From NCBI GenBank assembly GCA_000004695.1, contig CM000152.2, positions 2,304,001-2,368,000 on the forward strand: a stretch of DNA of 64,000 bases, in the 5' to 3' direction. The notes under the pieces are model-generated. The model searched no databases. It saw nothing but the letters and a program-made list of their open reading frames with translations, and was not told the DNA's origin. The stretch is from Dictyostelium discoideum (Eukaryota). This document shows, piece by piece, positions 11,068 through 39,458 of the stretch (within the stretch, counting starts at the first letter, position 1; every line of letters begins with the position of its first letter). Made by a program: the position numbers and the translations under genes.

Positions 11068-12339
11068 AAAAAAAATAAAAAAATAAAAAATACTAATTTA
11101 AAATGTAATCTTTTAAAAAAAAATAAAAAATAAAAAAAATAAAAAAAATGAATAAAAAAATAATATTGAGAATGCAAATAAAAAAAACAATTGCCATATG
11201 CTAATATAGACTCACACCTCCAATTTAAATAAAAACACCATAACACACTACCCACACTATTAAACCACACCCTTAATAATTTTCTAAAATTATTTTATGT
11301 ATGATAAAATACTTCCCTTAAATAGTTCATACTCATAACACTTACTTCTCTCTCTCTATTTCTCTCTCCCACACACACACACACAAACACACACTTTTAT
11401 ATATATATTGTTAATAAAAGTCGAAAACAATTCATTTTTTGTAATAAAAAATTTTAATTCAAAGTATTTCTGTTATAAAATAAATTACGATTATTTTTCA
11501 AAAAATGACAACAAATATGTCAAGTATGTTGTCAAATTATTATAATAACACTAACACTAAAAAAAAAAAAAAAAAAAATTAAAAAAAAATAAATAAAAGT
11601 AATAATAAAAAAAAAAAAAAAAAATTAAATATATAATTTGTTTAAAATTTAGTGTGGATGTGGGTAAAATAATTAACAAAATTTAAAATTTATATATTTA
11701 TATTTAAATTTAAAATGAAAAAAATAAAATAATAATTGATTCTTTAAAAAAATTAATTGCCATATCTGGATCAAAAATAATTTGATTAAGGATTTGTTTT
11801 TTTTTTTCATCTGTATTTTTATTTTATTTTTTACTTTCTTATTTATTATATCGTATCTAATTTACAAAGATTAATTTTTAAATTTGTCCAATGGAATTTT
11901 TATTTTTTTTTTTTTCAAATTAATTTTGTAATAATCAGTGCAATATTTAAGGATATTATCCTATATGAATATATATTTTAAAATATTATTTAAATATCAT
12001 GAACTATAAAATATTTTATTGTTTTTGAATTTTTATTTTATGGATGTTTTGAAATGTGACTACTGAATTATTAATATTATTATTTAAAAAAAAAAAAAAA
12101 ACTAATAAATAAATTTTTGAGAGAGTGATAAAAATGATTATATAATGGTTAGCGCGCACTATTATAATGGTTATAACTTTTTATTTTTTTTTTTTTTTAT
12201 AAAAAATTTTTTATTTTATTTTATTTTATATACATATAAAAATAAATATTTATTGTTCATAAAATAAAAAAGAAAAAGATTTTGTGGAAAAAAAATAAAA
12301 AAATAATAAAAATTATTATAATAATAAAAAATAATTAAA

Positions 12340-16737: not shown

Positions 16738-17070
16738 ATGGCAGCATTAGAAAATTTTTTAATTTTAAGAGATGGAATTAACCAATCAAAATTTATGGAA
16801 ATGTTTGAAAAATTTTTTCATGAAAATGTTGTAATGATCCAAAATGGAGCCATCATAGAGGGAAAAGCCAAAAATAGAGAAATCCAAGAAAACTTTATTA
16901 AAAACTCTGTTATTCATGAAATTAAAATTGTTTCATTTGAAGAAAGGGGAGACACTATTGTTTATCAAATGGTAATGAATTTTGAAATTGGTGGTCATGT
17001 AATTAACAAAAACCAAGAGGTTCATCAAACTTGGGAATATGATAAAGTTATTAGAGAATTATATGTTTAG
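16738..17070 (+). CDS. small hypothetical protein (110 aa), possibly NTF2-like/SnoaL-like fold
   Basis: ATG in an A-rich context with non-repetitive protein-like composition. The fold assignment rests only on size and alternating hydrophobic pattern and is weak. Confidence 0.4.
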   Translation: MAALENFLILRDGINQSKFMEMFEKFFHENVVMIQNGAIIEGKAKNREIQENFIKNSVIHEIKIVSFEERGDTIVYQMVMNFEIGGHVINKNQEVHQTWEYDKVIRELYV

Positions 17071-17488: not shown

Positions 17489-17758
17489 TTAAATTTTTAT
17501 TAAACACAAAACATTCTTTTTCATTGTTTTTGAAATCGATATAATTTTTTTTTCACTTAAAAAGCTTTTTTTCTTTAATTTAAAATTTGATTTGCCAATA
17601 TTATTATTTAAGGTTTTCTTAACTTTTGGAATTTTGATTTTACCCTCTCTTTCTAATTTTCCTAAATGATTTCTAATATTTTCAATTGGACAATTATTTA
17701 TATTATTATTATTATTATTTATTTGGTCATTATTTATTTGGTTATTATTATTAATTTG

Positions 17759-17830
<72 letters not shown>

Positions 17831-18121
17831 TTCATTTTTAATATTTTCATTTTGTGGTAGAGGATTTAAAGATGGATTAAAGGTCGAACATGGAATATTA
17901 GAAGGACGGAAAATAAATTCGGAACTATATCTTATATTGGCATTATGATAAAAATTTAATTCTTGATCATCGAGAGAATCATCGTCATCAACACCTTCAA
18001 ATTCAAAAACCAATGGCTGGGTCGATAGAAATTGTCTTTGTTCGAGGAGATGACTAGTTGTATTTAAGCATGTTGGATGAATTAATGATATAGTTTCAAA
18101 TTCTGGTAATAAACTTTCCAT
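17489..18121 (-). CDS. divergent member (210 aa) of the MESLLP-family that is tandemly repeated at 21.5-25.9 kb
   Basis: Shares the N-terminus (MESLLPEFETISLIHP...TSHLLEQRQFLSTQPLVFEFEGVDDDD) and C-terminus (ENIRNHLGKLEREGKIKIPK...KKKSFLSEKKIISISKTMKKNVLCLIKI) with ORFs 21510..22037, 23562..24077 and 25430..25918, separated by a polyN/QINN spacer. Confidence 0.5.
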
Positions 18122-18226
18122 TTTTTTTTTTTTTTTTTTTTTTTTAATTAACTAATTTTTTTAAAATAAAATGAAAACTGTTTTTTTTTTTTTTGGAAAA
18201 AAAATAATAATTATTTTAATATGTGA

Positions 18227-18261
<35 letters not shown>

Positions 18262-18279
18262 CTTTTAGAAAAAAAAAAT

Positions 18280-18314
<35 letters not shown>

Positions 18315-19649
18315 CCTTTTTATTTTATATATGTTACCTTAATTTTTTTTTTTTTTTTTTTATTTTTATATAAATAACTGTTTATGGTGGTTAGAAATTT
18401 TTTTTTTTGTTTTCTTTTATTTTGATTTTTATATTATCGTGATGGTGAGGATGAAATAAAAAGAAATGAAAAAAAAAAAAAAAAAAAACAAAAAAAACAA
18501 AACAAAAATAAACAACACAAAAAAAAAAAAATAATAATAATAAATATATAAAAAATAAAAAAAATAAAAATAAAATAAAAAATTTAAAAATAAAAAAAAA
18601 AAAAAAAAAAAAAAAACAATTTAAATATGTAAAAATAAAATTTAATTAAATCTCGACATTACGATCACCATGGGTGATAATTAATTGTATCCGAATAATA
18701 ATGTGGGTGTATAAATTATAATAGTATTAATAATAATAGTGCGTGGTGTGGGTGTGAATGTGTGTTGAATAATATCCAAAATGATTGGCTTAATAAATTA
18801 TCTTTTTTATTATTACTATTTTTATTTTATTTTATTTTATTATTAATTTAATTTTTATTTTTATTATTTTTAATAGTTATTGTATTGTTGATGGAAAATG
18901 GTGGTGTTGGATTATAATTTAAAATAACTATTTCTACAACAACAACAACAACAACAACAACAAAAAAAAAAAAAAAAAAAAATACAATAAAAAAAAAAAA
19001 AAAATCAAAAATAACAACAACACATATTTTTTTTTAAATCTAATAAAAAAAAACTTTTTGAAATTTATATTTTTTTTAATCTTTTTGGCGAGAGATTTGT
19101 ATTTGAAAATTATTTTCCACCAAATGAGATTCAAATCAACTCCCCCCACCACTACAACCACACATGAAAATTAAAAAAAAAAAAAAAAAAAAATTTAATT
19201 AGGGGGGTCTGTTAACTAAATTACATATATATATATACATTTTTCATATGTAAATGATCTTAGGGTAAAATTAAAAGTAATAATATACTTTTTTATGTAA
19301 TTAAAATGAGTGTGAAAGTGGGTTGTTTTGTAAACTTGTTTTTTTTTTTTTTTTTACTTGTTATTGTAACATTTTGGTGATCTAAAAATATAAATGAATT
19401 TTTAAAATTAAATATCATACCATTAACTATATATTTTTTTAAATAAGTGGGTGAATTTGAATGTTGGTGAGTGTGTGTGAGAGTGGGTTATTATGTATTA
19501 AACTTGTTTAGAGAAAAAAAAAAAAAAAAATAAAAAAAAAAAAAGGTGGTTGTGTGTGTAAATGGTGTGGGGAAATTAAATTAAAAAATGGCTTGAAATA
19601 GAAAAAGTATAGAGTTATTCTATATACATTTGTGTAAAAATTTATTTCC

Positions 19650-19688
<39 letters not shown>

Positions 19689-20465
19689 TGCCAATGAGAA
19701 CTTTTATTTTAAAATTTTTATCTTATATTAAATTAATACTAATATTAGATCTAAAAAAATTGGTATTTTAAGGGAATAAAAAAAAAAAAAAAAAACTGTT
19801 TTAATAAAGTCATATCATATAAATTTCCAAATTACTCTACTTTAATTTTATTTTTTTTATTTTTTAAAAATTTTAATTTGTTAGGTAACAATAAATATTT
19901 CATTTATTTGAAAAATTAATTCATAAAATAGACTTGAAATCAAAAAAACGTCAAAAAAGATAATAGTGATTTTTTTTTTTTATTTTTAGATTTTATTATT
20001 TGCCAATTGTAAATGGTGTGGGGGAAAAAATGTTTTTCATTATTTTTTATTTTATTTTTTCCACTTTTAAAAAAACAGTAAAGTTTATTTGTAGCGACAA
20101 TTTTAAAAAAAAAAAAAACAAAACAAAATTTTATAAAATAATAGTTTTTGAATTAAGATTTTAAAACATGTCTCCATTTGATCGAAATTTTTATATAAAT
20201 TAATAAAATTTAATTTTAGATCAATTAAAAATAGTAAAAATGAAAGATAAAAAACTTTTTTAAAAAAAAAATAAATAAAAAATAATAATGATACATAAAC
20301 CTCATATAATTCAATGGTGTTGATGATGATATAAATTAATGTCAATACAATAAAAACTTTGGGAATAGGGAGTATTTCATAAACCTCTTAATTTTTGAAA
20401 AATAATTAGAAAAAAAAAAAAAAAAAATTTATAAATTAGTTTTGTGTGTACGTGTCTGTGTATGG

Positions 20466-20503
<38 letters not shown>

Positions 20504-21509
20504 AAGATGATATTGTTATTATTGATTGTAAATTAAGGTTGGATGATTTAAAATTTTTATTAAACTCCAATTACTACATTTGATAATCTATTATTAATAA
20601 TATTTATGAGAAATAATCACATTTAATCTATTGAAATCTTGATAATTCTTTTTCTTTTTACTACCAAAAAAAACAACCACATCTTTTATTCATTTTTTTT
20701 TTTTTTTATACAAAAATAGGTTTTATCTTCCTCAAATCATTTATTTCTCAACTCTCATGACATTAGATTTTATTTTTTATAGATTAAAATTAAACCAATA
20801 ATAATAAACTTCCTTTTTTATATTTTTATTAAATCATGAATGTTTTTTATTTTTTTTAAAAAATGTTTTTATTGTTAATTTAAAATTTGTATTGTATAAA
20901 TATGTACAAATGGGTGTGTTATCTATTATTCCTAATAAAGTATTGTTAAATTTGTAATTCAATAATTGGGTAACACAAAACAAAGTTTCTAATATTGAAA
21001 AAACCATACCCCAAAAAAAAGTATTTAAATTAAACTTATGGGGGCAGTGTTTATTTCATTCTTAACTAATTTTTTATCTAATTATTATTTTATTAATAAA
21101 AAAAAAAAAAACACCAATTCAAAATTTGTCGTTATTTCATTTCCATAAAAAGGTGTTTTATTGTTAATTTTTTTTTTTTTTTTATTTTTTAAAAAAAATA
21201 AAAAATAAATCACAAATAAATAAAAAATAGAAAATTAAAAAAAAAAAAAATAAAAAAAAAATTAAAATAAAAAAATTAAAATAAAAAAATTTCCCTAAAA
21301 AAGTTAAAATTAATTTGTTTATTTTTTTAATTTTTTTTGTTTTTTTTTTTTTTTTTTTTTATCTGAAAAAAAAAAATCAAAATAATTTCAAGGAAAACAC
21401 TGGGGGTAGTTAATTGAAAAAAAAAAAAAAAAAAAAAATATGAACAATCTTTTGTTCATATTTTTTTTTTTTGAGAATATTTTATATTAAAAAAAAGAAA
21501 TAACTTTAT

Positions 21510-21742
21510 TTATTTTATTAAGCAATGAAACATATTTTTTTTCATTGTATTTGAAATTGAAATGAACTTTTTATCCCTTATAAAACTATTTTTTTTAATT
21601 TGAAAACCAGATTGATGGCTTTTATGAGAATTTAAACTTTTAGGAATTTTAATATGACCCTCTTTTTCTAAATTCTTTAAATGATTTGTAATATTTTCAA
21701 TTTGGTAATAATTATTTATATTATTGGTTTCATTTGAAATTA

Positions 21743-21821
<79 letters not shown>

Positions 21822-22037
21822 TTGTTTTAATGTTTGATCTGGTTTAAAATTATTATTATAAAAATTTAATTCTTGATCGAGAGTATCATCGGATTCGTCA
21901 TCATCCCAAACACCTTCAAATTCAATTACTAATGGTTGAGTTGATAGAAATTTTCTTTGTTCAAGGAGATGACTAGTTGCAGAACTCATTGGATGAATTA
22001 ATGATATTGTATTAAATTGTGGTAATAAACTTTCCAT
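21510..22037 (-). CDS. MESLLP-family hypothetical protein, tandem copy A (175 aa)
   Basis: ATG-initiated ORF with the conserved N-terminal 60 aa, a polyN spacer and the conserved C-terminal block ending CLIK. Nearly identical to copies B and C. Confidence 0.55.
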
Positions 22038-22069
22038 ATTTTTATTATTAATTTTATTATTACTATTAT

Positions 22070-22110
<41 letters not shown>

Positions 22111-22695
22111 TAATTACTATGATACTATTTTTTTTTTTTTTTTTTTAAAAATTTTTTTTTTTTTTTCTTGCTTGTCTTATTATTTTTTATTTTTATTTTT
22201 TTTTTATACAAATAAAATAAGATTTGATTTGTTTTGTTTTTTTAAAAAAATGAAATTAAAAAAAAAAAAAAAAAAAAGAAAAGGAAAAAAAAAAAAGGGT
22301 AATAATGTAAAAAATTAAAATAAAAGTTTTTTTTTTTTTTTCACACCGTCAGGTGAAATGAATTTATTTAAGAATTTCGCCAACAAAGATCTTTTTAGAT
22401 TGTTGTGATTATTTTGCGAATTAAAAAAAAGTTTTTTTTATTTTTTATTTTAATTTTATTTTTTTTTTATTTTAATTTTTTTTTTTTTTTTTTTTTTTAT
22501 AAAAATTTGCACATATGCATCGACGGGTAAGGTGCTCTAAATCAAATTTTTTTAATTTTATTTTTTTTATTTTTTAATTTTATTTTTTTATTTTTTTTTT
22601 TTTTTTTGTTTATTTATTTTTATTTGAATAATTTAAATGGATTGAACCATTTTAAATTTCTTTTGGATTGAACCATTTTTTTTATTTTTTTTTTA

Positions 22696-22726
<31 letters not shown>

Positions 22727-22848
22727 AATAACTCTATTTTATTATATTTTAAATTTTATATTAAAATTATTTTTAAAATAATAAAGAATATGATCTAATT
22801 CACTGTCTAATCGTCTCTAAAAAATTCAAACGTTAATGGGCGAAAGAC

Positions 22849-22881
<33 letters not shown>

Positions 22882-23561
22882 GTGTTGGGTGATAATATCT
22901 TTAAAGTAAGTATAAATTAAATATCATTGGCGGGTGTTTTTTTTTTTTTTTTTTTGAAAAAACTATATATTTGAAAATTTCAATCTGATTAATCTCAAAC
23001 AACCAATATTGCTGTTAATAAATTAATGTGAAAAGTTCGCCCCCCTTTTGCCATCGTTAGTTACAAACTCCATCAAAACTAAAAAGCTTGACAATCGGAG
23101 GATCTGACAAAGATACACAAACATATGTTTATGAAAAAAAAAAAAAATAAAATAAAAAAAATAATAATAGCAAAATAAAACAATAATAATAATAATTATA
23201 ATAATTGGCCAAAAAAAAATAAAATAAAATAAAATAAAAATAAAAATAAAAATAAATTGCAAACCCTTTTTTTTAATCCCAAAATAAAAAAAAAAAAAAC
23301 GTGTCCAAAATTTGCAAATTTTACATTTTTTTTATTTTTTTATTTTTTTGTTTTTTTTATTTTTTTGTTTTTTTTGGGCCAAAAAAATCTAAATTTCGAA
23401 ATAATTTTTCGAGGAAGATGGTGAGTGGTCAATCCAAAAATTTTTTTTTTACAAAAAAAAAAAAAATATTAAAAAAAGATACCCACACAAAAAAAAAATA
23501 TAAAAACAGTATGGGGTGATTAAAATAATTAAAAAAAAAAGAAAAAAAGAAATAATTTTAT

Positions 23562-23791
23562 TTATTTTATAAAGCAATGAAATATATTATTTTTCATTGT
23601 ATTTGAAATTGAAATTAATTTTTTATCCCTTATAAAACTATTTTTTTTAATTTGAAATCCAGATTGATGGCTTTTACGAAAATTTAAACTTTTAGGAATT
23701 TTAACATGACCTTCTTTTTCTAATTTTTTTAAATGTTTTTTAATATTTTCAATTTGATAATTATTTATATTATTGGTTTCATTTGAAATTA

Positions 23792-23873
<82 letters not shown>

Positions 23874-24077
23874 TTGAATTTGTTTAAAATTATTATTATA
23901 AAAATTTAATTCTTGATCTAAAGTATCATCGGATTCGTCATCATCCCAAACACCTTCAAATTCGATTACTAGTGGCTGGGTTGATAGAAATTGTCTTTGT
24001 TCAAGGAGATGACTAGTTGCAGAACTCATTGGATGAATTAATGATATTGTATTAAATTGTGGTAATAAACTTTCCAT
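23562..24077 (-). CDS. MESLLP-family hypothetical protein, tandem copy B (171 aa)
   Basis: About 95 percent identical to copies A and C at protein level. Sits in the same position within a ~1.95 kb repeat unit. Confidence 0.55.
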
Positions 24078-24875
24078 TTTTTTTTTTTTTATTATCGTTA
24101 TAGTTTTTTTTTTTTTTTTTATTTATATTTAATTTATTTTAATATATTTATATTTATTTTATTTTTTAATAGGAAAATATTTTTATATTTAAATTTTTAT
24201 TATTATTATTTTATAACAAATGAAATATTTTTTGATTTGTTTTTTTTTAAAAAAAATGAAGAAAAAAAAAAAAAAAAAAAAGAAAAGAAAAAAAGAAAAA
24301 AAAAAAAAAAAGGGTAATAATGTAAAAATAAATTAAATTTAAATAAATTTTTTTTTTTTTTTTAAACCGGGTCAGTGACTAAATGAATTTATTAAAGAAT
24401 TTCGTCAACAAAGATCTTTTTGGATTGTTTGTGATTATTTTTTTTAATTTGCGACCTAAAAAAAAGGTTTTTTTTTTTTATTTTTCTTTTTTTATTTTTT
24501 ATTTTTTTTATTTTCAAAAAATATTTAGGATTGCACCATTTTAAATTTCTTTTAATTTTCCACCATTTTTTTTTTATTTTGTTTTTAACTTAAAGTTATT
24601 ATTGTAATTGATTAATATCTTTTTTTTTTTTTTTTTTTATCTAATTTATAAATTTTATTAAAATTATTTTTTATAAAAAAAATTATAAATTTAAGTTTCC
24701 AGAAAAATAATTTCCATAAAAGGAAAAAAAACTATAAAAAAAAAAAAAAAAAAAAAATAGAAAAATATAAAAAAAAAAAAAAAAAATAGAAAAATATAAA
24801 AAAAAAAAAAATTTGCCCTTTAACAGTTGGGTGATAATATCTTAGATAGGTAAGTATAAATTAAATATCGTTTGT

Positions 24876-24920
<45 letters not shown>

Positions 24921-25429
24921 AAAAAAACTATACATTACAAACAACCAATGTTGCTGTTAATAAATTAATGTGAAAAGTTCGCCCCCCTTTTGCCATCGTT
25001 AGTTACAAACTCCATCAAAACTAAAAAGCTTGATAATAAAAGGATCTGATAAAGACACACAAATATATGTTTATATTAAAAAAATAAAAAAATATAAAAA
25101 AAATAAAAAAATAATAACAATAATAAAATAAAACAATAATAAAAATAATAATGGTCAATTAACCAAAAAAAAAAAAAATAAATAAAAAAAAAAAAAAATT
25201 AATTACAGCGCAAATTTTACAATTTCAATTTTTTATTTTTTTGTTTTTTTTTATTTTTTTTTTTTGTCCAAAAAAAATCTAAATAATTTTTCAAGGAAGA
25301 AGGTGAGTGGTCAATCCAAAAATTTTAAAAAAAAAAATTTTAAAAAAAAAAAAAATATGAAAAAAATAGATGCACACAAACAGTGCGGGGTGATTTAAAA
25401 TTATTAAAAAAAAAAAGAGATAACTTTAT

Positions 25430-25918
25430 TTATTTTATTAAGCAATGAAATATATTATTTTTCATTGTATTTGAAATTGAAATTAATTTTTTATCCCTTA
25501 TAAAACTATTTTTTTTAATTTGAAATCCAGATTGATGGCTTTTACGAAAATTTAAACTTTTTGGAATTTTAATATGACCTTCTTTTTCTAATTTTTTTAA
25601 ATGTTTTGAAATGGTTTCAATTTGATAATTATTTATATTATTGTTTTCATTTGAAATTATATTGTTATTATTATTATTATTATTACTATTATTATTATTA
25701 TTATTATTTATATTTTGTGTTTGTTTAAAATTATTATTATAAAAATTTAATTCTAGATCTAGGGTATCTTCAGATTCGTCGTCGTCCCAAACACCTTCAA
25801 ATTCGATTACTAATGGTTGAGTTGATAGAAATTGTCTTTGTTCAAGGAGATGACTAGTTGCGGAACTCATTGGATGAATTAATGATATTGTATTAAATTG
25901 TGGTAATAAACTTTCCAT
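25430..25918 (-). CDS. MESLLP-family hypothetical protein, tandem copy C (162 aa)
   Basis: Same family; the polyN spacer is shorter. Flanks match those of copy B. Confidence 0.55.
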   Translation of the reverse strand: MESLLPQFNTISLIHPMSSATSHLLEQRQFLSTQPLVIEFEGVWDDDESEDTLDLELNFYNNNFKQTQNINNNNNNNSNNNNNNNNIISNENNNINNYQIETISKHLKKLEKEGHIKIPKSLNFRKSHQSGFQIKKNSFIRDKKLISISNTMKNNIFHCLIK

Positions 25919-26676
25919 ATTTTTATTATTATTATTATAATTAATTTTTTTTATTTTATTTTATTTTTATTTTTATTTTTATATTTATTAGAAAATTTTT
26001 TTATTATTCTATTACAAATAAAATATTTTTTGATTTGTTTTTTTTTTTAAAAAAAATGAACAAAAAAAAAAAAAGAAAAAAAAAAAAAAAAGAAAAAAAG
26101 AAAAAAAAAAAAAAGGGTAATAATTTAAAAAATAAATTAAATTTAAATAAATTTTTTTAAACCGGGTCACCAAATGAATTTATAAAAGAATTTCGTCAAC
26201 AAAGATCTTTTTAGATTGTTTTGTGATTATTTTTTTTTTTTTTAAAATTTGCGACCCAACCATTCCACAAACAAATGGTTTTTTTTTTTTTTTTTAATTT
26301 TGATTTTTTTAATATTTTTTATTTTTATTTTTATTTTTATTTTTATTTTTATTTTTTTTTATCGATACGAATTATTCCAAAAACAAATGGGTTTTTTTTA
26401 TTTTTCTTTTTTTATTTTTTATTTTTTTTTTATTTTTAATTTTATTTTGGCAAGTGGATTTTGCACCATTCAAAATTTTGACCTTTTTTTTTTTTTTTTT
26501 TATTTTTTTTGTTTTTTAAGTTATTATTATAATTGATTATTATCTTTTTATTAATACTAATTCTATTACTTTTATTTAAATCTATTTTTTATTATAAATA
26601 ATTTTAAGTCTCACAAAACTTTTTACTTAAAAAGGAAAAAGCCGAGAATAGCTAAAAATTTTAAATTTCATCAATA

Positions 26677-26748
26677 GTTTCGATAGCTCAGTGGAAGAGC
26701 AAGCGACTGCAAATCGTTAGGTCGCCAGTTCAATCCTGGTTCGGAACT
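26677..26748 (+). tRNA. tRNA-Cys (anticodon GCA)
   Basis: Hand-folded cloverleaf: acceptor stem GTTTCGA/TCGGAAC (one G-U pair), D arm GCTC-AGTGGAA-GAGC, anticodon stem AGCGA/TCGTT with loop CTGCAAA (GCA at 34-36), T arm GCCAG-TTCAATC-CTGGT containing the B box, discriminator T. A box TAGCTCAGTGG is present. Confidence 0.85.
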
Positions 26749-26760
26749 TTCGTTTTTGTT
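26749..26760 (+). terminator. RNA polymerase III terminator T-run downstream of tRNA-Cys
   Basis: tttcgtttttgtt immediately follows the tRNA and contains a T5 run. Confidence 0.5.
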
Positions 26761-27596: not shown

Positions 27597-28754
<1,158 letters not shown>

Positions 28755-34707: not shown

Positions 34708-34837
34708 ATAATATTATAGTATTAATGTAAAATTTTTTTAAAATTATTTTTAAATTTAACTTTTTTTAAAAAATAAAACATGACTTATAAAGTTAAATTA
34801 AGATTGATTTTTTTATTTATCTTATTTTTTTTTTTTT

Positions 34838-36213
34838 TTAATTTTTATTATTTCTTTTTTTAATTAATATAAAATTATCAGGACATGAAAGGCCAATTTT
34901 ATAACTTCCAAATCCATTAGTTCCTGGATTAATAAATTCATAACGATTAATTAAAGTTGCTAAAATTGTAAATAATTCAGATTTGGCAATTGATTTACCA
35001 ATACAATCTCTTACACCAATTCCATAAGCAGCTAAATCCATCTCATCATTTTCTTTTTCAAATCTTTCTGGTATGAAATCATTTGGTGATTTGAAAAATT
35101 TATTTGAGTACCTTTTGCAATTTTAATATGATTTATTTCAACATCTTCAATTAAATAATGAGGAGTAAACGCAGATAAAGGAAGAGCAGGATGAAGTCTA
35201 TATGTTTCTAATAAAAATGATTTTAAAAATGTGAAATTATTATTATATTTTGAGTTTAATAAAATCAATTCACCATGATTATTTTTCACTTGATCATATA
35301 ACTTAATTTGATAATTTCTATTATTAATTAATTCCACTAAACTAAATAAAGCAGTATTTGAAGTTAAATCTACACCAGTAAATAATAAATCTGCATAAAA
35401 ATAATAAATTTCTTTTAGTAATTTCATTTTTTTCATATAATTTTAAAAATTGATTTGGAATAGTAATATTTGTAAAATCATCTTTTTTTCATTTTCAATA
35501 TATTTATCTACCAAATCTGAAACCATTTCTATAAAAATACTATGTGGATCACATTTTAAATAATTACCAATTTTTGGTAAATATTGTAAAAAAACATTAA
35601 ATTTTGAAAAGTTTAAAAAATTATTAACTCCATTTACCAATTTACTAGCTTCACCATCATTTTCTACTTTAATAGGAAAGGAAAACCCAAAAATAAGTGA
35701 GCAAGTTATATTTAATGTAAATTGTTTAATTAAACTAATTAATTGAACTGGTTTACCTTGATTTGCAATTTCATCTAAAATTTCAATTAATTTTAAAAGT
35801 TCTCTATTAAAATGATGATCTTTAATTGATTTAATTTTGGAATTAGTAATTGTGAATAAAACTGCTGTTTTAATTTTACTATGAACTTCACCATTTGATA
35901 ATATTATACCAGCATTACCATTTTGGTATAAATCTCTTTTTTAAATAAATTTGAATTATCAATAAATGCTTTTTAATAATGGTTTTTCAGTTAAAACAAC
36001 AGTTTCAATATTTGCCATTTTAATTCTAAATATATTTCCATATTTATTATACAATTTTTGTAATTTTAAATGTGGTTCATTTTTTATTGTAGATAAATTA
36101 CCCAAAATTGGTAAACTAAATCCAGTCCTGGAATTTTAGAATTAATTTGGGATATTATAATTAGAGTTTTTTATTAAAAATATTATTAAAATAATAATTA
36201 TAAAATAAATCAT
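34838..36213 (-). pseudogene. cytochrome P450 pseudogene: frameshifted/deleted tandem duplicate of the intact P450 at 37132..38556
   Basis: Near-identical nucleotide stretches to the downstream P450 (the ttaattaatataaaattatcaggacatgaaa start region and the FGIGVRDCIGKSIAKSELF heme loop as AYGIGVRDCIGKSIAKSELF). The reading frame is broken into three or more pieces (track ORFs 34838..35041, 35032..35436, 35443..35640 and an unlisted N-terminal part up to the ATG near 36213). About 50 nt of net deletions relative to the intact copy. Confidence 0.75.
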
Positions 36214-37131
36214 TTCTAAAAAATCTTTTTATTGAGAGGTTTTTATATTTTTTAAAAATTGGTTAATATTAATAGTTTCCTAATTTTTTTCTTATTAGTT
36301 TAATAATCTAAACTTGTTTAATTTATTATAAATACTATATTTTTTATTTTTTTATTTTTTTATTTTTTTTCTAAAATTTTTATCCATCTTTTGACAAACA
36401 AAATAGATTTTTAAAATTTTTATTTACAAAAATAAAATTATTTTAAAAAAAAAATTATTAAGTATTACTTTAATTAATATGAAGGTGGTAGAATTAAAAT
36501 AAAATTTTAAAATTAATTGTAGTTATTTTATTATTAAAAATAGTTTCTTGCATTTTTTTTTTTTTTAGTTTTTTTTATTTTTTTTTTCTTTATAAAAAAC
36601 ACTTAATTCAATAATTCATTAATAAATACTACTAGTGAATTAAATAATTATTTTACAGGTATAAAATTTTGGAGAGTTTGGATTTTTCATCTATCGGTTT
36701 TCAATTAACTATTTTTATTTTATTTTTTTTTATAAAAATTAATTTTAAGTCTCCAATTAAAAAAAAAAAAAAAAAAAAAGGATATATCTGGTTCCATAAA
36801 TTTTATTATTTAATGTAAAAAAAAAAAAAAAAAATTAAATTATCTCTTTTTTTTTTACCCATTTTTTTTTCAAAAACCTTTTTATTTGAGAAAAAAAAAA
36901 ATAAAATTTTTTTTTATTTTTAGTGGAAAATATTTTATTTCAATTCCAACCCAATAATCAATTAGTTAAATGAATATATAATATTAATTATTATATATAT
37001 ATTATATATTTTCCTTTAAAAATAAATATTATTTTTTATTATTATTTTTATTTTTTATTTTTTATTTTAATTTAAATGGCTTTGGGACACATAATTTTTC
37101 CAAAAAATATAAAAAAATAAAAAAATTTGTT

Positions 37132-38556
37132 TTATTTTTTTTTTTTTCTTTTTTTAATTAATATAAAATTATCAGGACATGAAACACCAATACTAAAAGT
37201 TCCACACTTGTTTAAAGGAACTAATGGATTAGGATTAATAAATTCATAACGGTTAATTAAAGTTGCTAAAATTGTAAATAATTCGGATTTGGCAATTGAT
37301 TTACCAATACAATCTCTAACACCAATTCCAAATGTAACTAAATCCATCTCATCATTTTCATTTTCAAATCTTTCTGGTATAAACTCATTTGGTGATTTAA
37401 ATTGTTTATTTGATCTATGAGAGGAATAGATATTTAAAATAATTTGAGTACCTTTTGCAATTTTACAATCATTTATTACAACATCTTCATTTAAAAAATG
37501 GGCAGATAAAGGAAGAGCAGGATGAAGTCTATAGGTTTCTAATAAAACTGATTTTAAAAATGTGAAATTATTATTATATTTTGAATTAAATAATATCAAT
37601 TCACCATGATTATTTTTCACTTGATCAAATAACTTTATTTGATATTTTCTATTATTAATTAATTCCAATAAACAAAATAAAGCAGTATTTGCTGTTGAAT
37701 CTACACCTGTAAATAGTAAATCTGCGCAAGAAAATAATAAATTTCTTTTATTAATTTCATTTTTTTCATTTAATTTTAAAAATTGATCTAAAATAGTAAT
37801 ATTTGTAAAATCATCTTTTTTTTCATTTTCAATATATTTATCTACCAAATCTGAAACCATTTCAATTAAAACATTATGTGGATCACATTTTAATAAATTA
37901 CCAATTTTAGGAAAATATTGTAAAAATAAATTTAATTTTGAAATATTTAAAAAATTATTAATTGCATTTACCAATTTACTAGCTTCACCATCATTTTCTA
38001 CTTTAATAGGAAAAGAAGATCCAAAAACAAGTGAACAAGTTATATTTAAAGCAAATTGTTTAAATATTCCAATTAATTGAACTGGTTTACCTTGATTTGC
38101 AAATTCATCTAAAATTTCAATTAATTTTAAAAATTCTCTATTAAAATGATGTTCTTCAATTGATTTTATTTTGGAACTTGTAATAGTTGATAAAACTGCT
38201 GTTTTAATTTTATTATGAACTTCACCATTTGATAAAATTATACCAGCATTTTTATTTAAGTATAAATATCTTTTTTTAAATAAATTTGAATTATCAATAA
38301 ATGCTTTTTTTAATAATGGTTTTTCAGTTAAAACAACAGTTTCAATATTTGCCATTTTAATTCTAAATATATTTCCATATTTATTATACCATTCATGAAT
38401 TTTCAAATGTGGTTCATTATTCATTGAATGTAAATTACCCAAAATTGGTAAACTAAATCCAGGTCCTGGAATTTTAGAATTTATTTGATAAATTCTATTA
38501 TTTAAATTTTTTATTATTAAAAATATTATTAAAACAATTATTATAAAATAAATCAT
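37132..38556 (-). CDS. cytochrome P450 monooxygenase (474 aa, single exon)
   Basis: N-terminal membrane anchor MIYFIIIVLIIFLIIKNL followed by a PGPGFSLPILGNL hinge. ETYRLHP (ExxR region) and the heme-binding loop FGIGVRDCIGKSIAKSELF (FxxGxRxCxG) are present. Confidence 0.85.
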   Translation of the reverse strand: MIYFIIIVLIIFLIIKNLNNRIYQINSKIPGPGFSLPILGNLHSMNNEPHLKIHEWYNKYGNIFRIKMANIETVVLTEKPLLKKAFIDNSNLFKKRYLYLNKNAGIILSNGEVHNKIKTAVLSTITSSKIKSIEEHHFNREFLKLIEILDEFANQGKPVQLIGIFKQFALNITCSLVFGSSFPIKVENDGEASKLVNAINNFLNISKLNLFLQYFPKIGNLLKCDPHNVLIEMVSDLVDKYIENEKKDDFTNITILDQFLKLNEKNEINKRNLLFSCADLLFTGVDSTANTALFCLLELINNRKYQIKLFDQVKNNHGELILFNSKYNNNFTFLKSVLLETYRLHPALPLSAHFLNEDVVINDCKIAKGTQIILNIYSSHRSNKQFKSPNEFIPERFENENDEMDLVTFGIGVRDCIGKSIAKSELFTILATLINRYEFINPNPLVPLNKCGTFSIGVSCPDNFILIKKRKKKK

Positions 38557-39458
38557 TTCTCTTTAAATATTTTTGATTTTTTTTTACAGAAAAAAATTAT
38601 TATTATAAATAAATTATTAAAAGTTTTTATTGGAGGGTTTTATATTTTTTTGAAATTGGTTGATAATTTCCTTTTTTTTTTTGTTTTTTTTTTATAAGTG
38701 GATTTATAATAAATTCTTTTTTTTTTTTGTAATCTTTAGATTTTTATTTTTAATCTATAAAAATATAAAATTTTTAAAATTTTATTTAAAATTATTTAAA
38801 ATTATATACAGGCGGCTAAATAAAAAAAAATTTCGGTTCATTTTATTATTAATAGTATATGCAATTTTTTTTTTTTTAAAGATAATTACTATTTGTGAAT
38901 TAAATGATTATTTGACCAGTATATAACTCCGGAGAGTTTTGGTATTTCAACTGTCGGGCTTTGATTTTCTTTGTTTTTTTTTTTTTTTTAAATGACCAAT
39001 TTTTATTAATATTTTAATTTTAAATCTCCAAATAAAAAAAAAAAATTTTCTTCTTTTTATAGTAAATGTTTTTTTTATAATTCGAATTTTTTCCATTAAT
39101 TATATAATTTGTTGGGTTATCAATTTATTAATAAAAACAACAACCGAAACACTGACAATGAAAACAAAAAAAATGAATGAAGAGGGGGACTTGTTGTGTA
39201 AAGATAAATAAATATTGAAGTTGTAATAAAAGCCGAAGAAATTAATTTCAAACTTTGGAAATTAAGTTTTTATATATTTTTATACAATTTTAAATTTAAA
39301 GAACTATTATTTATTATTATTATTTATTATTATTTATTATTATTTATTATTATTATTATTTATTATTATTATTTATAACATTGGAATCATACAATTTTCT
39401 ATTTTTTTTTTTTTTTTTTTTTTATTTATTCATTTTTATTTTTTATTTTATTTTATTT

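Follow-up and report, generated by a model that had tools for sequence, protein, structure and literature searches.

Introduction

Tandem clusters of taxonomically restricted small-protein genes, such as those of the hssA/2C/7E type, are found in Dictyostelium discoideum. Their members are short, single-exon, functionally uncharacterized genes that lie head-to-tail with their own flanks; they are developmentally regulated and restricted to social amoebae. Another group from this organism is the Asn-rich (prion-like) homopolymer proteins, whose polyasparagine (polyN) tracts are encoded by AAT and differ in length in frame between strains. The features of both are combined at one locus of a 64,000-nucleotide stretch of D. 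discoideum DNA (GenBank assembly GCA_000004695.1, contig CM000152.2, positions 2,304,001 to 2,368,000; hereafter the window, A+T ~80%), where three tandem genes and a fourth, more divergent one encode small proteins with two charged blocks separated by a polyN spacer.

The locus also departs from these systems. The family resembles no named one in sequence, as it has no Pfam match and all of its database clusters (12 of 12) are labelled 'hypothetical'; unlike many families of the hssA/2C/7E type, it has an ancient single-copy syntenic ortholog across Dictyostelia. Compared with the Asn-rich proteins, polyN is here a variable, non-conserved spacer between two blocks under purifying selection, and it replaces the ancestral RRYSSEFIF and KKRKR regions. 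The reading favored here, with a probability of about 0.7, is that the locus holds four genuine genes of a Dictyostelia-restricted family, namely an ancestral ortholog and an amplified derived paralog, with products that may act in the nucleus through short motifs. The functional component has a lower standing of its own and is taken up separately below.

Four Genes of One Family

Open reading frames (ORFs) and their translations were checked on the whole window, and four minus-strand members of the family were counted, all of them single-exon:

17489 to 18121, minus strand: ancestral-type gene, 210 amino acids (aa), probably DDB_G0279617 (identifier from accession order)
21510 to 22037, minus strand: tandem copy 1, 175 aa, probably DDB_G0279619 (identifier from accession order)
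23562 to 24077, minus strand: tandem copy 2, 171 aa, probably DDB_G0279621 (identifier from accession order)
25430 to 25918, minus strand: tandem copy 3, 162 aa, exact match to DDB_G0279623 / XP_641559.1 / UniProt Q54WJ4

The ORF at 16738-17070 (110 aa) is DDB_G0279615 by exact protein look-up. Because exactly three accessions (XP_641556-58) fall between XP_641555 (DDB_G0279615) and XP_641559 (DDB_G0279623), these presumably are DDB_G0279617, DDB_G0279619 and DDB_G0279621 and belong to the three remaining genes. A collection of proteins searched by exact sequence contains copy 3, whose polyN tract is the shortest and is interrupted; the products of 17489-18121, 21510-22037 and 23562-24077 are absent from it, and the same three are called as identical genes on the independent assembly GCA_054883475.1. 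Their absence may reflect a low-complexity filter rather than missing annotation.

In all four proteins an acidic block at the N-terminus (~60 aa, net charge -10 to -12, isoelectric point [pI] 4.05) is joined to a basic one at the C-terminus (~63-65 aa, net charge +9 to +15, pI 10.2-10.5) by a (AAT)n-encoded spacer that varies in length; its polyN runs measure 7-27 residues. This layout, the positions and strand of the ORFs and their arrangement in head-to-tail units had been put forward in an original prediction made from the DNA letters, and the ORF list and self-BLAST bear them out. The trio proteins are 89-91% identical over their full length (97-100% in the N block and 85-94% in the C block), below the ~95% first estimated, and the product of 17489-18121 is ~70% identical to them over alignable columns. 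AAT makes up 94-100% of the Asn codons across the four genes (53 of 55 in the ancestral type), and the spacers are encoded by the following tracts:

17693 to 17845, minus strand: impure (AAT)n encoding the polyN/Q/I spacer of the ancestral-type gene (period 3, 51 copies, 77% matches)
21739 to 21821, minus strand: (AAT)28 polyN tract of copy 1 (tandem repeat finder, 97% matches)
23788 to 23873, minus strand: (AAT)29 polyN tract of copy 2 (tandem repeat finder, 97% matches)
25656 to 25708, minus strand: interrupted (AAT)18 polyN tract of copy 3 (tandem repeat finder, 88% matches)

The length of the polyN tract differs between strains, as seen for copy 2, which encodes 171, 153, 155 and 188 aa in four genomes.

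Outside the spacer, twelve residues are invariant throughout the family (L13, I14, H15, T22, H24, L26, Q28, R29, L32, Q35, P36 and L37 in the numbering of 17489-18121), and in every member they are followed by a hydrophobic stretch and then an acidic run. The N-terminal pattern runs from a short helix, T-x-H-x-L-x-Q-R-x-x-L, through QPL and a hydrophobic strand to the acidic run. The basic C-terminus carries a second short helix and an ISxTMKxN.F.CLIK motif and resembles a nuclear localization signal (NLS). Neither the four window proteins nor five distant homologs matched any Pfam family above threshold, in agreement with the original statement that no domain could be recognized, and a profile search of PDB returned only polyN-driven matches to Dictyostelium nucleoporins, which are artefacts. 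The AlphaFold models have a mean pLDDT (predicted local distance difference test score) of 41 for copy 3 and 47 for the ancestral type, so that mostly disorder is predicted; in the latter only two helices reach moderate confidence, at residues 23-33 (~73) and 146-158 (~55-60). By hydropathy, no hydrophobic segment suited to a signal peptide or a membrane span was seen, the highest 19-residue Kyte-Doolittle mean being 0.47-0.71.

One sub-threshold similarity was followed up. In the segment 'HLKKLEKEGHIKIP' there is a weak likeness to the recognition-helix end and the wing (L..LE.eG.I) of winged-helix domains (HTH_34, DUF2513, BLACT_WH, HTH_12), and Pfam matches of this kind fall there in all four proteins, each covering only ~15-25 residues. 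A winged-helix domain was rejected, as the matches score 12-17 bits against gathering thresholds of 21-30 bits. AlphaFold places one isolated helix at this point (103-112 in copy 3, 146-158 in the old copy) and no three-helix bundle with a wing, which is a weak negative given the low confidence of the models.

Relatives Across Dictyostelia

Relatives were sought by an exhaustive hidden Markov model (HMM) scan of 1.84 billion representatives and by a profile search of 5.8 billion proteins, with the sensitivity of HMMER being limited for a short disordered protein. A word-indexed search returned proteins of the D. discoideum clade only, and in it the derived subtype was met only in D. discoideum, D. 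cf. discoideum and D. citrinum. The HMM scan reached further, to a EukProt species (P0009, 267 aa, E = 6e-19), a soil metagenome contig (P0010, E = 2e-18), Heterostelium album (PPL_09113, E = 3e-10), Tieghemostelium lacteum (DLAC_01635, E = 1e-8) and Acytostelium subglobosum (E = 1e-6); the family is thus not lineage-specific, contrary to what had been supposed. A 1827-aa bacterial repeat protein (P0014, E = 3e-4) was dismissed as spurious, and a profile search of the 5.8 billion proteins with a widened alignment gave nothing further outside Dictyostelia. By these searches, within their limited sensitivity, the family is restricted to Dictyostelia. Literature searches on DDB_G0279623, its sibling identifiers, PPL_09113, DLAC_01635 and Q54WJ4 found no papers.

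The distant proteins and the product of 17489-18121 have in common 'LIHPTC', 'RRYSSE[FL]IF.P' (kept in the window gene as 'RYSSEFIFRP') and a serine/proline-rich linker, all of which are altered or missing in the trio. An aldehyde dehydrogenase gene adjoins the family gene in H. album, T. lacteum and A. subglobosum, as it does 17489-18121 in the window, and tblastn found no second copy within 10 kb on either side in these three species. Because both the motifs and the aldehyde dehydrogenase synteny are common to the distant single-copy genes, the 17489-18121 gene is assigned by sequence and position as the ancestral ortholog and the trio as derived copies. What had first been described as a divergent fourth paralog is therefore the ancestral ortholog. 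The distant orthologs also carry KKRKR followed by an acidic run, a motif that is absent from the D. discoideum proteins, and their C-termini run 9-11 residues past the Cys of 'CLIK' (CLIKPSQEGLLTIP, CLIKPIEHSLLVTP, CLIEPPLEGIILQ).

The annotated H. album model, PPL_09113, is 424 aa long and spread over 3.9 kb (L007, GL290991.1), and seems mis-spliced. Since the family N block begins at 11397 of this locus and the C-terminal motif 'IFSITQTMHDNIFSCVISPPLEG' lies at 12075-12143 (11397-12143 overall), the true protein is probably ~250 aa and the annotated model in error.

Coding Status and Expression

The four ORFs are genuine protein-coding genes. The ratio of nonsynonymous to synonymous divergence (dN/dS) is 0.05-0.37 in all paralog and ortholog pairs (Nei-Gojobori method, alignable N and C blocks), and it is 0.03-0.14 for the N block alone in most comparisons among derived copies, which indicates purifying selection. 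Of 19 copies, 18 keep a frame of 153-253 codons open although their AAT tracts vary in length, at an AT content of ~80% in the coding sequences and 84% in the surrounding region. The one exception is the D. cf. discoideum ortholog of copy 1, where a frameshift eight codons before the end replaces the last eight residues.

Transcripts were also looked for and are present in published RNA-seq tables for both DDB_G0279623 and DDB_G0279621. The former stands at 7.3 at 0 h, 2.0 at 4 h and 0.3 at 8 h, and reaches 2.6 transcripts per million (TPM) in spores against at most 0.6 in cup, stalk and vegetative cells; the latter stands at 4.8 at 0 h and 8.5 TPM in spores, and the spore-specific sheet lists both (PMC6198379 supplement 5). 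DDB_G0279623 further appears in the 'suspension_DOWN' part of a second file, that is, among genes down-regulated early in starvation (PMC4403905 supplement 7).

The Array in Other Genomes

The locus was compared in GCA_054883475.1 (L001), strain FIR (L002), D. citrinum (L003), D. cf. discoideum (L004) and strain FIW (L005). L001 belongs to an independent chromosome assembly of 6.43 Mb; it matches the window at 99.35% identity over 14.6 kb, and its four family proteins do not differ in sequence from those of the window. Three tandem copies plus the ancestral type (3+1) are found in the window, L001, L002, L004 and L005, and two plus one in D. citrinum. Collapse of the array was looked for in these independent assemblies and none was found; the copies are reproduced. 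Everywhere the genes are flanked by polyubiquitin and tRNA-Cys on one side and by SnoaL-like and aldehyde dehydrogenase genes on the other. The copy number is thus stable at three in the D. discoideum-complex genomes examined, which does not agree with the family being described as actively duplicating.

In D. citrinum the proximal copy is collinear (L003 9589-12238) with AX4 copy 1 and with the unique downstream flank of that copy, and the repeat period of ~1.96 kb equals that of AX4. Within the trio, copy 1 is closest to the ancestral type, and its positional ortholog in D. citrinum is the proximal copy.

Two peculiarities were observed in D. cf. discoideum. The interval that runs from where copy 2 ends to where the copy-1 ortholog starts measures ~3.5 kb (L004 12360-15850), compared with ~1.5 kb in the other genomes, and the extra DNA holds two called ORFs, of 180 aa (minus strand) and 159 aa (plus strand). 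A 69-aa protein of this species (P0008, ACTFIZ_005853) fuses the first 42 residues of the N block to the last 27 of the C block; it represents either an intron-bearing gene model across the polyN region or a real internal deletion.

Age of the Triplication

Synonymous divergence (dS) among the three AX4 copies is 0.15-0.22. This is similar to the values between positional orthologs of different strains (0.10-0.28) and lower than those to D. citrinum (0.36-0.42); dS to the fourth gene is 0.58-0.67. In a bootstrapped neighbor-joining tree of the family copies from the sampled genomes, the old and derived types split at 94-100% bootstrap, with D. citrinum present in both groups. Copy 1 and its positional orthologs of FIW and FIR form a clade (97%), and the FIW and FIR copies 2 and copies 3 form orthologous pairs (99-100%). 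Because the copies group with their positional orthologs, the triplication is older than the divergence of the sampled strains. The local tandem amplification that had been proposed is therefore real, but it is not recent, given these dS values and the same three copies in four genomes.

Between AX4 copies 2 and 3, dS is 0.065 in the C block and 0.31 in the N block. Copies also cluster by species, those of D. cf. discoideum (three) in the N block and those of D. citrinum (two) at 100% bootstrap. The low C-block dS and the clustering within species are signs of gene conversion among the copies, and together with the length differences between strains they agree with the earlier suggestion of polyN slippage and gene conversion. 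The first duplication may be shared by D. discoideum and D. citrinum, because the proximal copy is collinear and the repeat period equal in the latter; independent duplication is the alternative.

Structure of the Repeat Units

Self-BLAST and a three-way alignment delimit the units as follows:

21190 to 23183, minus strand: repeat unit 1, comprising 3' flank, gene, upstream region and junction spacer
23184 to 25094, minus strand: repeat unit 2
25095 to 26640, minus strand: repeat unit 3, partial, without the ~400 bp junction spacer and ending beside tRNA-Cys
22264 to 22403, minus strand: conserved upstream block of copy 1, putative promoter/5' untranslated region (UTR) (86-94% identity against 40-65% in the surrounding spacer)
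24279 to 24428 (copy 2) and 26082 to 26219 (copy 3): equivalents of the upstream block, from the three-unit alignment
22880 to 23140, no strand assigned: junction-spacer block between copies 1 and 2, relatively GC-rich, ~260 bp
24826 to 25084, no strand assigned: second copy of the junction-spacer block, between copies 2 and 3, ~260 bp

The units are 1.84-2.04 kb long and head-to-tail, with ATG-to-ATG distances of 2040 and 1841 bp. Within the window, 21190-22484 matches 23184-24514 at 77.5% identity, 22578-24514 matches 24468-26325 at 76.4% and 21190-22776 matches 25095-26607 at 71.9% (E = 0 for each). Whole units are therefore 72-78% identical and the non-coding flanks were duplicated together with the gene, as in a tandem segmental duplication. 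Coding DNA is ~90-100% identical in the three-way alignment, and ~250-450 bp from each ATG lie two upstream blocks that the three units share at 86-94% identity. The claim of matching promoters and 3' flanks accordingly stands for the upstream blocks and for the fact that flanks were duplicated, but the 3' flanks are only 55-78% identical. The upstream blocks are putative promoter/5' UTR elements by virtue of their conservation. Similarity of 17489-18121 to the units reaches only ~180 bp upstream and ~90 bp downstream of its ORF by self-BLAST, and tblastn found no further family copies or relics elsewhere in the window.

Another component of the units is the junction block. Its second and third genome copies are ~83% identical overall with a central ~130 bp that is nearly identical, and its GC content reaches 36% in a spacer of ~10% GC. 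The block is ~90% conserved over eight copies in four genomes, and within arrays it is found only in the two inter-copy spacers; it is missing upstream of copy 3 and in D. citrinum, and one spacer of strain FIR holds it in inverted, truncated form. A coding exon was ruled out by indels of 2-3 bp. The block was also examined as a hidden RNA; it gave no Rfam match at E <= 1, and its folding z-scores of +0.98 and -0.39 are not unusual. The spacer 22700-23300 likewise gave no Rfam match at E <= 1, and near the array a whole-window scan at gathering thresholds reported the flanking tRNA-Cys only. The block may have a regulatory role, or it may be filler DNA picked up when the first duplication junction formed.

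No transposase or reverse transcriptase ORF that would mark the units as cargo of a mobile element, such as a tRNA-gene-targeted retroelement, is present between 17 and 27 kb of the window. The locus is syntenic in all genomes examined, and the DDE_3 transposase genes seen on L002 and L005 lie elsewhere. A tRNA-Cys(GCA) gene at 26676-26749 (plus strand) stands directly past the right edge of unit 3; a tRNA-Cys gene flanks the array in every D. discoideum-complex genome examined and lies ~4 kb off in D. citrinum.

Proposed History and Competing Explanations

The following history is proposed. An old single-copy gene beside aldehyde dehydrogenase gave rise to a derived paralog before the split of D. 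discoideum and D. citrinum, with 'TC' in its N block changed to 'MS' and the RRYSSEFIF segment lost. This paralog was then amplified as a ~1.95 kb segment together with the flanks on both its sides, for which unequal crossing-over would be the simplest mechanism, so that D. citrinum now has two copies and the D. discoideum complex three. The copies have since been homogenized in part by gene conversion and kept by purifying selection, and their (AAT)n tracts change length in frame, probably through replication slippage. The steps are read directly from the comparisons above, and unequal crossing-over and slippage are the mechanisms that we infer behind them.

Three other explanations of the locus were weighed. 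There is a negligible chance that the array is an artefact, mis-assembled or over-expanded from a repeat. The region is extremely AT-rich and repetitive, and so prone to assembly error, but GCA_054883475.1 carries identical proteins of the same lengths and three more genomes each hold three diverged copies; since 9-11% of residues differ between the copies, these cannot all stem from a single sequence duplicated in assembly. Chance open frames or decaying pseudogenes would fit the low expression, the lack of a proteomic match in the supplements of one life-cycle proteome paper, the C-terminal frameshift of L004 copy 1 and the low AlphaFold confidence. Such decay is nevertheless highly improbable with dN/dS far below 1, with all but one of the copies open despite AT-rich DNA and indel-prone AAT tracts, with a family conserved across Dictyostelia and with developmental regulation in RNA-seq. 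A recent orphan family of the D. discoideum lineage that is still actively duplicating, which is how the original prediction viewed the locus, is quite unlikely as well. The tandem units are real, there is no Pfam domain, polyN lengths vary between strains and the derived subtype has the narrow distribution given above; against it stand the divergence of the copies (dS 0.15-0.22), the presence of all three copies at matching positions in four genomes of the complex and members with conserved synteny in three other dictyostelid genera.

The favored reading, of an ancestral ortholog and an amplified derived paralog with a possible nuclear role, has its own difficulties. Expression is low and RNA-seq reads may multi-map among the paralogs; no family peptides appear in the supplements of one life-cycle proteome paper, where small, low-abundance Asn-rich proteins are easily missed. 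The D. citrinum pair clusters at 100% and has no junction block, which sets shared duplication with concerted evolution against independent duplication. The DDB_G identifiers of three of the four genes come from accession order only. As to function, the possible nuclear role is drawn from composition, from a KKRKR that only the distant orthologs have and from pattern resemblance.

Possible Function

The proteins are small, disordered and charge-segregated, with an acidic N-terminal helix and an NLS-like C-terminus, and for this reason they are tentatively pictured as disordered nuclear adaptors or regulators acting through short linear motifs. Joined to this picture is an expression pattern in which the genes would be low in growing cells, off early in starvation and present in spores. 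The odds are against the combination, though it deserves consideration.

A more specific version is unlikely: throughout Dictyostelia the family would regulate, from the nucleus, either the passage from growth to development or spore dormancy, acting via the N-terminal helix and the hydrophobic-acidic segment, with the trio neofunctionalized. The helix would be the invariant T-x-H-x-L-x-Q-R-x-x-L-x-x-Q-P-L, the adjoining segment would resemble a SUMO-interacting motif or a degron, and the trio would have dropped the RRYSSEFIF phospho-motif and the KKRKR motif. Every member does contain QPL-[IV]-[ILF]-x-[IFL]-[DE] followed by a D/E-rich run (PLVIEFEGVWDDDESDD, PLVLFELLDDDDDEDD and PLIIGIDLDEIDD are examples), as in SUMO-interacting motifs, but Phe at the fourth core position is atypical and the motif leaves the 35 conserved residues before it unexplained. 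A D-box-type (destruction box, RxxL) substrate or regulator of the anaphase-promoting complex/cyclosome that is degraded when growth stops, for instance a securin-like cell-cycle protein, is very doubtful. R29 and L32 are invariant family-wide, S-P sites, an RRxS site and KKRKR occur in the ancestral type, the mRNA peaks at 0 h and drops on starvation, and the protein is disordered. However, AlphaFold puts RxxL within a helix and not in an extended degron, triplication and spore expression are unexpected for a securin-like protein, and the S-T-Q-P-L that follows is not accommodated by the canonical D-box consensus at positions 7-9. The likeness to a SUMO-interacting motif and that to a D-box degron are resemblances of pattern. 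A membrane anchor like that of K-Ras, with a prenylated C-terminal CaaX box (CLIK or CFIK) beside a polybasic stretch, is extremely improbable. In all three tandem copies a lysine-rich segment leads up to a terminal C-[LF]-I-K, but the ancestral-type copy ends in CLIKI with its Cys at -5, the Cys is internal in the distant orthologs, and K is a poor residue at the X position of such boxes. CaaX prenylation was rejected because the Cys is not fixed four residues from the C-terminus across the family.

Neighboring Genes

The polyubiquitin gene beside the array is ubqH (DDB_G0279721), which spans 27609-28754 (plus strand), has five repeats and was identified by exact protein look-up. With this gene, DDB_G0279615 and DDB_G0279623 all matched exactly, the window is assigned to AX4-type chromosome 3. 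Its repeat number varies by strain, with five in AX4 (381 aa), three in FIR (229 aa) and four in FIW and D. cf. discoideum (305 aa); polyubiquitin lies at 6066-6755 of L002, 6838-7755 of L004 and 7508-8425 of L005. A DDE_3 (Tc1/mariner-type) transposase gene is found between the kinase and LYR-motif genes in FIR (L002 2680-3668) and FIW (L005 4003-5287) and is missing from the AX4-type locus L001.

The window holds a second tandem duplication, of cytochrome P450 genes at 34832-36567 and 37126-38878 (minus strand), which are 82% identical over 1.8 kb. One copy has an ORF of 474 aa and the other only a 134-aa fragment as a continuous ORF, so that the latter either has introns or is degraded. Local duplication is thus common in the window.

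Implications

The locus is an ordinary tandem expansion of annotated but uncharacterized genes. It reveals no new genetic element or mechanism, and tandem expansion of orphan genes is commonplace in the D. discoideum genome. If the nuclear-regulator reading were true, the family could be a fast-evolving counterpart of a 'missing' disordered component of the cell cycle or the SUMO pathway. The value of the finding is modest: it lies in a previously undescribed, Dictyostelia-restricted small-protein family with an ancestral ortholog, synteny, diagnostic motifs and a dated tandem expansion. For dictyostelid researchers the array offers a clean example of in-frame AAT-repeat slippage and gene conversion, and the four genes together a target for knock-out.

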